From the NCBI GenBank assembly GCA_963741205.1, contig CAVUHW010000008.1, forward strand, positions 128,001 to 192,000: a stretch of 64,000 nucleotides of DNA, written 5' to 3'. The notes below the pieces were generated by a model, which did no database searches, had not been told where the DNA came from, and saw only the letters and a list, made by a program, of their open reading frames with translations. This DNA is from Nitrospirota bacterium (GTDB lineage Bacteria; Nitrospirota; UBA9217). This document shows positions 28,472 to 39,806 of this stretch, in pieces; the first letter of the stretch is position 1; each line of letters starts with the position of its first letter. The translations under genes were made by a program, and so were the position numbers.

Positions 28472-28810
28472 ATGAAAAAAATAGAAGCGATCATAAAGCC
28501 GTTCAAGCTCGATGAAGTGAAGGACGCCCTGAACGCGATCGGCATCCCGGGTATGACCGTGACCGAGGTGAAGGGGTTCGGCAGGCAAAAGGGCCATGTC
28601 GAGCTCTACCGCGGCGCGGAGTACGACATCTCTTTCATTCCGAAGGTGAAGATCGAATTGGTTGTTGCGGAAGCGATGGCGGAGAAGGTGATCTCAACCA
28701 TCATGGAGAAGGCCAAGACCGGCAAGATCGGAGACGGCAAGATCTTCATCTCCAAGCTTGAAGACATTATCCGGATCAGGACGGGCGAAAAAGGCGAGAC
28801 AGCGATTTGA
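28472..28810 (+). CDS. glnK: PII nitrogen regulatory protein
   Basis: [18 protein letters not shown]-loop, [16 protein letters not shown]; directly after amt. Confidence 0.95.
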
Positions 28811-28870
28811 GAGGTCGCTGTTTATCCTCCCTGGGGCCGGCATGTTCCATTGCATGCCGGCCCTTTTTTT
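28797..28870 (+). repeat. Two-hairpin 3'-UTR element with terminator, copy 1
   Basis: ACAGCGAT-TTGAGAG-GTCGCTGT hairpin, TATCCTCCCTG linker, GGCCGGCATG..CATGCCGGCC + T7. Confidence 0.85.
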
Positions 28871-29009
28871 AAGGACCACCGCGGCCTTCACCTATGACAG
28901 TGAGTTTTTATTCCCGAATGCTTTTACGGAATTCTTGAAGTTTGATTGATAAGCTCTTTCAGGTATGACTGATGATATTTAGCATGGGCTCTTCGCAGCA
29001 AAACACATT

Positions 29010-30055
29010 ATGATCACCATCATCCTCATACTTATATTCCTGATATCCTGCTCCTCCCCATGCTGGTAAAGCGGGTCGAGCACAACCTCGAAGCTGTTCC
29101 TGCTCGTCACGGGAGGCGTCACACTTGCGTTATCCCACTTGTTCGGACCCGAGCCGCTCGTAAATCTTCGGCTCATTGAGTCGGCATTGTGGGAGCCCGT
29201 GAAACTTACGATCGCGACGCTGGTCTTCGGGCTCGCTTTCCGCGCGATACGTGAACCTCTGAAGAAGAAGGTCGTCCAGGTCGAAACACGGCTTGGGCCC
29301 CGTCTTTTTGCATTCCTGCTCATATTCGTCCTCGGGCTCGTATCGAGCGTGATAACGGCGATCATCGCGGCCCTCATCCTATGCGAGATCGTGAGCGCCA
29401 TCAACCTCGATAAGAAGTATGAAACGCGTCTGGTCATCTTCGCCTGCTTTTCGATCGGCATGGGCGCGGCCCTTACGCCGATCGGTGAGCCCTTGTCCAC
29501 GATTGCAGTGGCCAAACTGCGCGGCGGCGAGCTTGACGGTGATTTTCTGATGCTCTTGCGCGTTTTCGGGATCTATATCGTGCCGGGCCTTCGTCGTAGC
29601 GCTGGCAGGCGGGTTTTTCCGGGGACCGAGGTTGCGCGATCGGAAAGCCTGGTCGAGGATTTTGAGGAGCCGTTCGGTCAATCGCGCTCAGGGCGTTTAA
29701 GGTTTACATGTTCATCATGGCGCTGGTGCTCCTGGGCACAGGCTTCAAGCCGCTCATCGACATGTACATATCGAAGATGCCTGCCCCGCTCCTCTACTGG
29801 GTCAATATCACGTCGGCAATCCTCGATAACGCCACGCTTGCCGCAGCGGAACTCGGTCCTCATATGACTACTGCTCAGGTGAAGGGCATCATCATGGGGA
29901 TCATCATCTCCGGCGGCATGCTCATCCCCGGCAATATACCGAACATTATCGCCGCGAACAAACTGAAGATTTCGAGCAGGGCATGGGCAATGGCGGGTCT
30001 GCCCTTCGGCCTTTTGCTCATGGCGTTCTATTTCGTAATCCTGTATCTGCGGTAA
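29010..30055 (+). CDS. DUF1646 family putative cation transporter (several frameshifts)
   Basis: VEHNLE, SSVITAIIAA, GAALTPIGEPLSTI, SAILDNATLAAAE, GGMLIPGNIPNII. Confidence 0.8.
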
Positions 30056-30073
30056 GTCCGAGAAGCTTCGGCA

Positions 30074-30109
30074 CGCTTATTTTTTAGGCATTCGCTTAAA
30101 GCATCACCT
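30074..30109 (+). promoter_or_regulatory. Tandem putative NtrC-type enhancer sites
   Basis: CGCTTATTTTTTAGGCA and CGCTTAAAGCA at 19-bp period. Confidence 0.55.
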
Positions 30110-30202
30110 TCACCGCGCATAACGAAATGAGATCGCTCTGAATTGCCAATATGCGTTTGTGTTGGAAAATCAACGATTGCACAGTATTCATGAAGGCGGG
30201 CG

Positions 30203-30218
30203 TGGCACAGGCCTTGCT
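30203..30218 (+). promoter_or_regulatory. Sigma-54 promoter of the divergent PII gene
   Basis: TGGCACAGGCCTTGCT. Confidence 0.88.
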
Positions 30219-30264
30219 TTAGAAACACTGAATGGAAGATGCGAATTGAAGGAAGGAGATTCCT

Positions 30265-30603
30265 ATGAAAAGGATCGAAGCGATTATCCGTCCGGCAAAA
30301 GTTTCTGATGTCTGCGCTGCTTTGGACAAAGCGGGCCATCCGGGTGTGACGATCTCGGCAGTCGAGGGACGGGGTAGCCAAAAAGGGTGGGTCAATCAGG
30401 TCCGCGGCTCTGCATACGAGAGGAACTTGCTGGCCAAAGCGCGAGTGGAAGTAGTCGCAAGTGACGAAAATGCCGACAAGATCATCAAGGCCATACGAGA
30501 TGCGGCGTTGACCGGCGAGGTGGGCGACGGTAAGATATTCGTCCACGACATGGCCGATGCCATCAGGATACGGACCAACGAAAGCGGCATGGCTGCCATA
30601 TAA
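30265..30603 (+). CDS. Divergent PII-family protein
   Basis: MKRIEAIIRP, QKG, RG..Y51, TGEVGDGKIF, RIRTNE; T-loop diverged. Confidence 0.92.
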   Translation: MKRIEAIIRPAKVSDVCAALDKAGHPGVTISAVEGRGSQKGWVNQVRGSAYERNLLAKARVEVVASDENADKIIKAIRDAALTGEVGDGKIFVHDMADAIRIRTNESGMAAI

Positions 30604-37587: not shown

Positions 37588-37731
37588 TGCCTGTTCCTTC
37601 CTGGACCTTCGAGAGCTGCTTTCTGTTCCCCGTAAAAAAAGGATAGCAATCGCATCTATCCATCATAGATGTTCTCGCCATCCACCTTTCCCGCTGGAAA
37701 CCTTATGTACTAATAGTAATAGCATACTCCA

Positions 37732-37767
37732 TGCACAACATTTAGTCACGTGCCTAAAATAACATCC
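37732..37767 (+). promoter_or_regulatory. Tandem putative NtrC-type enhancer sites
   Basis: TGCACAACATTTAGTCA and TGCCTAAAATA at 19-bp period. Confidence 0.55.
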
Positions 37768-37875
37768 GCATTTGCGGCGTGATGAAAGTTCGCGCACAGG
37801 CACAAGCACCGCGCATGAGCTCTATCCTGTAATGAAATCAATATGATTGTCATAATACTTCAACGCCTTCTTCTT

Positions 37876-37891
37876 TGGCATGTGCCTTGCT
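37876..37891 (+). promoter_or_regulatory. Sigma-54 promoter of amt2-glnK
   Basis: TGGCATGTGCCTTGCT. Confidence 0.88.
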
Positions 37892-37947
37892 TATTATCAC
37901 ATGCAGAATAATTAAACATGGCATCATCAAACAAGGAGGAATGTACC

Positions 37948-39312
37948 ATGAAAGAAGCATGGAGTGAAATGTGTTCGCTGTTGTTGCAGTGCTTCTGATA
38001 TTCGCGGCGTTTTGCGCGCCGGCCTTGGTCATGGCGGAGGAGACGGTTGCCCCTGCGCCCGCGGCTGCCGCGGCTGCGGCTGCCCCTGCGCCGAAGATCG
38101 ACACCGGCGACACGGCATGGATGATCGTTGCCACGGCGCTGGTCATGCTCATGTCCATACCTGGCCTGGCGCTCTTTTACGGCGGACTGGCAAAGCGCAA
38201 GGATGCGCTGAACACCATGGCCATGACCTTCGTGACCTTCTGCATCGTGAGCGTGCTGTGGGTCATCTACGGCTACACGTTTTCGTTCGATACCGACATC
38301 AAAGGCATTATCGGCAGGGCATCGAAGTTGTTCCTGAAAGGTGTGGGGCCGAACAGCATCTCGGACCTGGCCAAGACGATCCCGGAGTACATCTTCATTG
38401 CGTACCAGCTCACCTTTGCGGCAATCACCGTGGCCCTGGCCTCGCGGCGCATACATCGAGCGCATGAAGTTCTCATCGTGGATCATCTTTTCCGTGCTCT
38501 GGATGACGGTCGTCTACCTTCCGGTGGCCCACTGGGTATGGGGCAACGGGTTCCTTGCAAAACTGGGGGCGCTTGATTTCGCCGGCGGAACGGTCGTGCA
38601 TGTCAACGCCGGAATCGCGGCGCTGGTCGGCGCTCTGGTGCTCGGCAGGCGCAAGGATAAGGCATCATTCCGCACAACCTGACACTCGTCGTGACCGGCG
38701 CGGGCCTCCTGTGGTTCGGCTGGTTCGGGTTCAATGCCGGTTCAGCCCTGGCGGCGAACGGCCTGGCCGGCGCTGCCTTCCTCAATACCAATACCGCGAC
38801 AGCAGTCGCGGCCATTTCCTGGATGGCCGTTGAATGGATGCATTCCGGAAAGGCCACGGTCCTGGGCCTCGCGTCCGGCGCCGTCGGGCGGCCTGGTGGC
38901 CATCACCCCGGCAGCGGGATTCGTCAACATCGGCGGCGCCATCATCATCGGCATCGCGGCAGGCGTGGTCCCTTTCTTTGCCGTGGCGAAGCTCAAGCCC
39001 CTGTTCGGGTATGACGACACGCTTGACGCATTCGGCATCCACGGCGTGGGCGGGACCATCGGGCGCGATCCTGACGGGCGTGTTCGCGGACCCGGCGATC
39101 AACGAGGCAGGCAAGGGGCTTTTGTACGGAAACCCCGGCCAGCTCTGGACCCAGATCGTGGCCGTGCTGGTGACGCTCGTGTACAGCGGCGTCATGACCT
39201 TCATCATCTTCATGATCATCAAGGTGACCGTCGGGCTCCGGGTCGGCGCGGAAGAGGAGACCATCGGCCTCGATGAAAGCGAGCATGGTGAAAGGGCGTA
39301 TAATTCAGTTAG
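37948..39312 (+). CDS. amtB: Ammonium transporter 2 (several frameshifts; 3' end approximate)
   Basis: [66 protein letters not shown]. Confidence 0.9.
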
Positions 39313-39410
39313 TGAACAGGAGTCAGGGGTCAGGAGTCAGGAGAAAAATCATTCACACGCCTGACCGCAAACGTTGGATCCCGTACTCTGTACTTTTATA
39401 AGGAGGTCCT

Positions 39411-39748
39411 ATGAAAAAGATCGAAGCTATCATCAAGCCGTTCAAGCTCGATGACGTGAAGGACGCGCTGAATGCAATCGGCGTGCAGGGCATGACCGTG
39501 ACCGAGGTAAAGGGGTTCGGAAGGCAGAAGGGACATGTCGAGCTCTACCGGGGCGCGGAATATGACATCGCCTTTATCCCAAGGTGAAGATCGAGGCTGT
39601 TGTCTCGGACAGCATGGCGGACAAAGTCGTCGCTGTCATCCAGGAAAAGGCCAAGACCGGCAAGATCGGAGACGGCAAGATATTCATCTCGAACCTTGAA
39701 GAGATTATAAGGATCAGGACCGGAGAACGCGGAGAAACGGCGATTTGA
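39411..39748 (+). CDS. glnK: PII protein (1-nt deletion near 39580)
   Basis: RBS AAGGAGG; close paralog of 28472-28810; 338 nt versus 339 nt. Confidence 0.9.
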
Positions 39749-39806
39749 GAGGTCGCCGTCTATCTTCCCTGGGCCGGCATGTTCCGTTGCATGCCGGCCT
39801 TTTTTT
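39735..39806 (+). repeat. Two-hairpin element with terminator, copy 3
   Basis: ACGGCGAT-TTGAGAG-GTCGCCGT, TATCTTCCCTG, terminator + T7. Confidence 0.85.

Follow-up and report, generated by a model that had tools for sequence, protein, structure and literature searches.

PII proteins and Amt transporters make up the most widespread nitrogen-sensing module of prokaryotes. The stretch of DNA analyzed here (the window: 64,000 nucleotides (nt) of an uncultured Nitrospirota bacterium of the GTDB lineage UBA9217, assembly GCA_963741205.1, contig CAVUHW010000008.1, positions 128,001 to 192,000) holds PII genes and the ammonium transporter genes amt1, amt2 and amt3. On its forward strand it also carries three copies of a short element of ca. 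75 bases in which two hairpins are joined by an unpaired CU-rich linker. Comparison with relatives indicates that, in one family of uncultured Nitrospirota, glnK-type PII transcripts carry this element at their 3′ end as a conserved and structured RNA module.

The element and the PII genes of the window

PII gene 1 (28472–28810, + strand; glnK-type, 112 amino acids; Pfam P-II E = 5.7e-34) lies downstream of amt1. A Pfam scan of the neighbouring frames placed it in an operon of a BBP2-family (OmpL-like) porin gene, amt1 and the PII gene, which is closed by copy 1 of the element (28797–28873, + strand). Likewise, copy 3 (39735–39811, + strand) closes the amt2-PII operon, whose glnK-type PII gene 3 (39411–39748, + strand), downstream of amt2, was found by tblastn as two frames. 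Copy 2 (30671–30747, + strand) is placed differently: it begins 67 nt past the stop codon of a divergent PII-like gene (30265–30603, + strand; Pfam P-II E = 2.1e-29; 46% identical to PII 1 by tblastn), which comes after a DUF1646 transporter gene, and it lies short of nhaA (30782–31939). The detachment of copy 2 from any stop codon, as described in an earlier note on this DNA, was thus seen again. Upstream of copy 2, no convincing promoter was found, the only candidate being a 9/12 match within the PII-like gene.

The earlier note had assigned the element to the 3′ untranslated region (UTR) of PII genes. It is indeed located at the 3′ end, but copies 1 and 3 overlap the end of the PII gene itself, which had been missed: the TGA stop codon of the PII gene lies inside the loop of hairpin 1, at 28808–28810 in copy 1 and at 39746–39748 in copy 3. 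Therefore, the 5′ arm of hairpin 1 is coding in these two copies and specifies the last residues, ..T-A-I. Copy 2 retains a coding remnant, G-K-A-A-I-stop.

Every copy is predicted to fold into hairpin 1, an unpaired linker of 9–11 nt, a terminator hairpin and a T-run. In copy 1 (minimum free energy (MFE) −41.1 kcal/mol, z −6.65; 97.6 bits with the covariance model described below), which is a terminator-like site, positions 28799–28806 pair with 28814–28821 around the loop 28807–28813. They are followed by the linker TTATCCTCCCT (28822–28832), a terminator stem formed by 28833–28844 and 28853–28864 around the loop TTCCATTG, and a T-run at 28864–28870. In copy 2 (MFE −45.2 kcal/mol, z −6.06; 94.3 bits), hairpin 1 is formed by 30672–30680 and 30688–30696, and the linker TATCCTCCCC (30697–30706), the terminator (30707–30738) and the T-run (30739–30744) come next. 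The corresponding parts of copy 3 (MFE −37.4 kcal/mol, z −4.49; 96.4 bits) are hairpin 1 (39737–39744 paired with 39752–39759), the linker CTATCTTCCCT (39760–39770), the terminator (39771–39799) and the T-run (39800–39806). Among 200 dinucleotide shuffles of each copy, none folded as well as the native sequence. The terminator consists of an 11–13-bp GC-rich stem followed by 6–8 T; this is the GC-rich stem-loop with a U-run of a Rho-independent terminator, and its stem is backed by covariation.

The three copies are 91–94% identical to each other over ca. 68–72 aligned bases, and their flanks are unrelated. A blastn search with the three copies as queries retrieved no further full-length copy in the 4.27-Mb assembly. 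Thus, the three-copy element, with its coordinates, its sequences and its order of hairpin 1, CU-rich linker and terminator, is as the earlier note had described it.

Distribution, structure and conservation

When copy 1 was used as a blastn query, strong matches were found in 13 of 14 genus-mates, with one to four copies per genome; the exception was genome G011. A covariance model was built from 30 copies of this genus (g1) and run over the family, whose 64 genomes are the same as those of the order. At E ≤ 0.01 it detected the element in 35 of the 64: in 13 of 14 genomes of g1, 8 of 9 of g29, 4 of 6 of g30, the single genome of g27 and 2 of 6 of g9, with weak matches elsewhere. Besides g1, four to six genera of this Nitrospirota family carry the element. 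In an even sample of the phylum, comprising 123 genomes of 21 other families, the same model gave one weak match (27.6 bits).

When one genome per species was scanned with a pattern, 21 records were retrieved, 19 of them labelled as metagenome-assembled genomes of Nitrospirota, Nitrospirae or Nitrospiraceae. Seven of the 21 were re-tested with the covariance model; the matches in Planctomycetota (L106) and Dehalococcoidia (L118) fail it and are put down to chance. A linker-plus-terminator pattern was also matched by 44 metagenome contigs, and the covariance model found the complete element in all 44. Altogether, 96 strong copies were gathered, representing 86 distinct sequences. As far as these searches reach, the element is a coherent unit restricted to a single family of uncultured Nitrospirota.

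The stop codon of the PII gene is carried by 30 of 50 strong copies (TGA in 19, TAG in 8, TAA in 3), and in these the intrinsic terminator, directly after the PII stop, is shared with the protein-coding mRNA. Among the other 20 copies, 15 are detached and contain a short remnant frame, one (L010) has a broken frame beside a PII gene, and four were left unassigned by the parsing rule. The remnants in detached copies usually end in (G-E-)x-A-I-stop, for example GEPAI, GETAI, GYPAI or GKAAI. Since the remnants correspond to the last codons of the gene, the duplicated unit is suggested to start ca. 12–15 nt before the stop codon. This pattern indicates that the element is copied as a unit to sites detached from PII coding sequence. 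One class of detached copies lies ca. 55 nt after the 113-amino-acid PII gene of a third amt-glnK paralogue (L004, L009, L033, L036, L037:4759-4834, L038 and L012:1490-1565) and bears an extra conserved hairpin upstream (CCCTTCAT / ATGAAGGG). Another detached copy follows a BBP2-family (OmpL-like) porin gene in G008 (L007).

In the alignment of the 30 genus copies, the two-helix structure is 94.2% paired and compensatory changes occur in 6 of 19 pairs. For four of five measures, none of 500 shuffles of this alignment reached the observed value; for the remaining one, 106 of 500 did. Slid controls were 28–46% paired. Across 61 family-wide matches, the structure is paired to 94.7% and compensatory change affects 14 of its 19 pairs, in an alignment that was fitted to the model, which favours structure. 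Helix 2 is 97.9–98.9% paired, with compensatory changes in 4 of 11 pairs in the genus and 7 of 11 in the family. The covariation of hairpin 1 that had been noticed from the window alone extends to both helices and to both alignments.

Selection on the element was assessed in 66 pairs formed from 12 attached copies whose PII genes are intact. Identity is 83.0% over the 62 nt of the element that are non-coding, compared to 57.7% for third codon positions of the PII gene and 46.8% for the next 60 nt, and the element was better conserved in 66 of 66 pairs. Similarity falls to background immediately beyond the element borders. Metagenome copies were left out of the count of linker conservation because they had been selected for the linker. 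Of 20 copies from outside g1, 15 have the exact linker 8-mer ATCCTCCC, 6 retain the hairpin-1 loop and 3 the terminator loop, so that the ATCCTCCC linker is the best-conserved unpaired segment across genera. Conservation of the linker thus reaches beyond recent duplicates. The TTGAGAG loop of hairpin 1, called invariant in the earlier note, is so within the genus and not beyond it, as these counts show. Taken together, the comparisons indicate that the element is under purifying selection as an RNA.

Three other features were considered for the element and rejected. Inspection showed that the hairpin-1 loop and the linker could form a pseudoknot of just 3–4 bp, and that a sigma-54 promoter within the terminator would have a spacing one base too long (GGCATG-N5-TTGCA), with downstream genes that vary by copy. 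A small open reading frame starting from the TTG that overlaps the stop codon conflicts with the linker indels, which differ among copies.

The linker and the amt3 start region

The candidate target of the linker is the translation initiation region of amt3 (46512–46532, + strand), an ammonium transporter gene without a PII partner. It contains CAGGGAGGATA at 46512–46522, with the core GGGAGGATAG at 46514–46523, and the ATG at 46530–46532. The exact complementarity to the amt3 ribosome-binding site that the earlier note ascribed to the copy-1 linker is real: TATCCTCCCTG (28823–28833) is the exact reverse complement of CAGGGAGGATA, at a site 8 nt upstream of the ATG at 46530. More generally, the linker consensus CUAUCCUCCC is complementary to GGGAGGAUAG, which in amt3 ends 6 nt ahead of the start codon, and it resembles the anti-Shine-Dalgarno tail of 16S rRNA. 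This genome has the canonical 16S rRNA tail, GGATCACCTCCTTTCT, and the commonest Shine-Dalgarno words here are AGGAGG and AAGGAGG, not GGGAGGAUAG.

Genome-wide, the 11-mer CAGGGAGGATA occurs eight times, one occurrence being copy 1 in antisense, and the 9-mer linker match is found at 44 sites, of which 10 resemble start regions by a crude rule. Start regions were then ranked by linker complementarity in a set of 5651 that was built on 5650 crude open reading frames with starts picked by Shine-Dalgarno score. The amt3 start region ranked 10 of 5651 with the consensus linker, 2 with the linker of copy 1, 54 with that of copy 2 and 19 with that of copy 3, and so stands above the background of ribosome-binding sites. 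Pairing in cis with starts of the element's own operons was rejected: PII 1, PII 3, amt1 and amt2 rank 1091–4059 of 5651.

Orthologues of amt3 are present in 47 of the 64 family genomes. Within the genus, 11 of 11 genomes have the 10-mer GGGAGGATAG unchanged, and the sequence immediately upstream of it varies. In the genome of the window and five genus-mates, the amt3 start region is the sole one to carry GGGAGGATAG in every one of the six. The 45 occurrences of this 10-mer in the five genus-mates comprise 5 amt3 start regions, 7 elements in antisense and 33 other sites; the latter include scattered start regions, none of which recurs in more than two of the five genomes. A compensatory pair was seen in G045, with GGGAGGATGG in the target and CCATCCTCCC in one copy of the element.

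The genome's best linker match, at rank 1, is the start region CCAGGGAGGATAG of a gene that we take from its N-terminal sequence to be ppdK, for pyruvate phosphate dikinase (G000:C30:31961-34645). This motif varies within the genus and is widespread in the family.

Several further sites were noted. The 10-mer GGGAGGATAG is carried by an fdhA-like gene with a Tat (twin-arginine translocation) signal in G001 (L269) and G003 (L256), and by a small membrane protein gene common to G003 and the genome of the window. In G004, amt2 (L242, G004:C38:77161-77640), which is part of an element-bearing operon, has GGGAGGATAG in its own start region; this would allow feedback in cis. Ca. 30 nt upstream of the amt3 Shine-Dalgarno sequence, a box TTCTTTGAAAA (46473–46483) is kept across the genus amid variable surroundings, some genomes having one or two substitutions, and may be a promoter or an operator. 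A 9-mer linker match is also contained in a repeat-like palindrome at 36315–36400 (..CTCCTTCAAGGGGAGGATAAGGTGGGGATGGGT.. with a complementary arm), which is not followed by a reading frame; a near-twin of it lies outside the window on the same contig (C8, ca. 97705).

Possible roles of the element

The tract that resembles an anti-Shine-Dalgarno sequence, which is predicted to be exposed in the isolated element, suggests a small regulatory RNA (sRNA). We tentatively favour, at somewhat less than even weight, a role in which the 3′-end RNA of PII transcripts pairs with G-rich ribosome-binding sites, amt3 being the best-conserved candidate in the genus. Transcription of each amt-glnK operon would end at the terminator of the element, and either a stable 3′ fragment of ca. 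75–85 nt would be left from the terminated transcript or the 3′ end of the mRNA would itself act. The free CU-rich tract would pair with G-rich Shine-Dalgarno regions of other mRNAs and block ribosome binding. Hfq would probably assist the pairing; three matches to Hfq (PF17209) exceed the Pfam cut-off in this genome, and CsrA was not found in the genome, which is 84% complete. The best-conserved candidate target would be the PII-less amt3, so that induction of amt-glnK operons would lower amt3 translation. A bolder form of this idea, which we consider unlikely, is that every amt-glnK operon of the family releases the same “sibling” riboregulator, whose seed, mimicking the anti-Shine-Dalgarno sequence, silences amt3 and perhaps a few GGGAGGAUAG mRNAs and so brings about a post-transcriptional hand-over between Amt paralogues that is built into the PII gene. 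The Gly-Glu codons could mask the seed until the fragment is processed.

To our knowledge, PII/Amt regulation has been described almost wholly at the levels of transcription and protein, and we know of no genetic system and no described sRNAs for this Nitrospirota lineage of soil, sediment and groundwater. An RNA module that is fixed to the glnK 3′ end and occurs in multiple copies across genera would add a post-transcriptional layer. The linker and the amt3 start region form a testable pair for heterologous reporter assays.

An unpaired C/U-rich tract between hairpins that is complementary to G-rich ribosome-binding sites is also a feature of MmgR (Rfam RF00519, model named ‘suhB’) and RsaE/RoxS, which are sRNAs with C-rich or CU-rich seeds of the anti-Shine-Dalgarno type. 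These, however, are free-standing genes of other lineages, whereas the present element is embedded at the 3′ end of a gene. A search of the whole window against Rfam 15 gave no matches at gathering thresholds; the best sub-threshold scores of copy 1 were 18.2 bits for SorY (threshold 111) and 17.6 bits for RF00519 (threshold 41). With ordinary Rho-independent terminators the element shares the GC-rich stem and the T-run. It differs from them in having a covarying hairpin across the stop codon and an unpaired tract conserved in sequence, and the sequences of its stems and loops are kept far more strictly than termination would require.

The nearest functional analogue is GlnZ, an sRNA derived from the glnA 3′-UTR of Enterobacteriaceae (PMC9731577; bioRxiv 10.1101/2022.04.01.486790). 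Both RNAs occupy the 3′ end of an mRNA under nitrogen control, whose terminator they share, and both are proposed to link nitrogen status to other genes by base pairing. They differ in the parent gene (glnA for GlnZ, PII/glnK here) and in phylum, and no sequence or Rfam relationship connects them; the present element is also multi-copy, overlaps a stop codon and has a seed that is anti-Shine-Dalgarno-like. In the literature searched, no description of a glnK or amtB 3′-UTR sRNA or 3′-end RNA was found, and a search for a Nitrospirota small RNA connected with an ammonium transporter gave nothing relevant among the matches listed, the best 10 of 301. We conclude that the element is a well-supported new RNA motif, and put forward its regulatory role as a hypothesis.

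The earlier note had proposed that the element cross-regulates Amt paralogues. The rank of amt3 and the invariance of GGGAGGATAG in 11 of 11 genomes speak for this part of the proposal, and several observations weigh against it. Many ribosome-binding sites will pair with any tract similar to the anti-Shine-Dalgarno sequence, and the set of reading frames behind the amt3 ranking is crude. Genomes devoid of the element share the sites: among 20 such genomes examined, predicted pairing of amt3 ranges from −6.2 to −17.5 kcal/mol, and amt3 often has CAGGGAGGA(T) in them as well, for example in G075, G077, G021 and G046, at −15.9 to −17.5 kcal/mol. The CCAGGGAGGATAG motif of ppdK is likewise present in G041, G065, G042, G043 and G078, all of which lack the element. 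Specificity is weak, since the linker and amt3 of the same genome pair with a mean of −18.7 kcal/mol vs. −17.9 kcal/mol across genomes, a difference of 0.8 (25 genomes), and in 5 of 25 element-bearing genomes amt3 complementarity is poor (−6 to −15 kcal/mol). Finally, the linker may be masked. In the 44 of 50 copies in which it was located by pattern, its median unpaired probability is 0.92 in the isolated element and falls to 0.42–0.45 when 15–200 nt of upstream sequence are included. RNAalifold adds a 3-bp GGA/UCC helix between the UCC of the linker and a GG(A/G) that precedes hairpin 1 and hardly varies; this helix would mask the linker in part.

The alternative that survives best, which we nevertheless hold to be rather doubtful, is that the element acts in cis only, as a 3′-end module that protects the amt-glnK mRNA from exonucleases or serves as a processing or protein site (for example, of Hfq or an RNase). 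In that case, a protein would recognize the CU-rich tract, and there would be no targets in trans. The strict placement at PII 3′ ends, in the same orientation and with 1–4 copies per genome, agrees with this, as does the high sequence conservation of the stems with limited covariation, which fits sequence-specific recognition. The occurrence of the amt3 and ppdK motifs without the element and the lack of a clear difference between own and cross pairing of linker and amt3 point in the same direction. However, a candidate for the binding protein is lacking so far, and the start region to which the conserved tract is an exact complement does not vary within the genus. In addition, detached copies follow other genes (the porin gene in G008 and the DUF1646-linked PII-like gene in the window), and therefore the module is not tied to the PII mRNA as such. 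Even if it acted only in cis, the element, with its defined structure and boundaries, would be well suited to become a new curated RNA family.

A second alternative is a translation-coupled cis device on glnK, in which the GGA(G) of the Gly-Glu codons pairs with the UCC/CUCC of the linker and a terminating ribosome remodels the 3′ structure, tuning termination, recycling or decay. It would account for the stop codon in the loop of 30 of 50 copies, with all three stop codons in use, for the GGA/UCC helix, which RNAalifold forms in 26–29 of 30 sequences, and for the drop in predicted linker accessibility with 15 nt of upstream sequence. We nevertheless judge it very unlikely: at least 16 of 50 copies are off an intact PII stop and still conserved, the extra helix has 3 bp, its register, as read from the alignment, differs between classes of copies, and no alternative antiterminator pairing was seen on inspection. 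Still more improbable is a plain intrinsic terminator that has stayed alike among PII paralogues through recent duplication or gene conversion, to which the canonical GC-rich stem with its T-run and the 84–96% similarity of copies within a genome would conform, but against which stand the conservation across genera, above synonymous sites in 66 of 66 pairs, the unpaired linker as the best-conserved unpaired segment, the decay of the flanks to background right outside the element, and a hairpin 1 that is unneeded for termination yet covaries. The favoured reading thus remains pairing of the 3′-end RNA with G-rich ribosome-binding sites, at the weight given above.

Some features of the surrounding DNA were recorded as well. 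Directly after amt1-glnK, the window contains a cation-transport cluster of the DUF1646 gene, the PII-like gene and nhaA (29139–31939), at which no Rfam model, riboswitches included, matched at threshold. The adjacency of the element and a following DUF1646 gene is repeated in the relatives at L003, L005, L037, L039 and L044. Single-base frameshifts split amt1 (26817–28457), amt2 (37948–39364), PII gene 3 (39411–39748) and amt3 (46530–47790), and the DUF1646 gene (29139–30055) is probably frameshifted too. In PII gene 3 the frameshift is of 1 nt near 39580, in a shortened A-run. Orthologues in relatives are intact (448–451 amino acids), and the frameshifts of the window look less like signs of pseudogenes than like indel errors of the assembly. 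A Fur-family regulator and an Fe/Mn superoxide dismutase are encoded on the minus strand at 44171–46006, in the region that separates the amt2-glnK locus from amt3.

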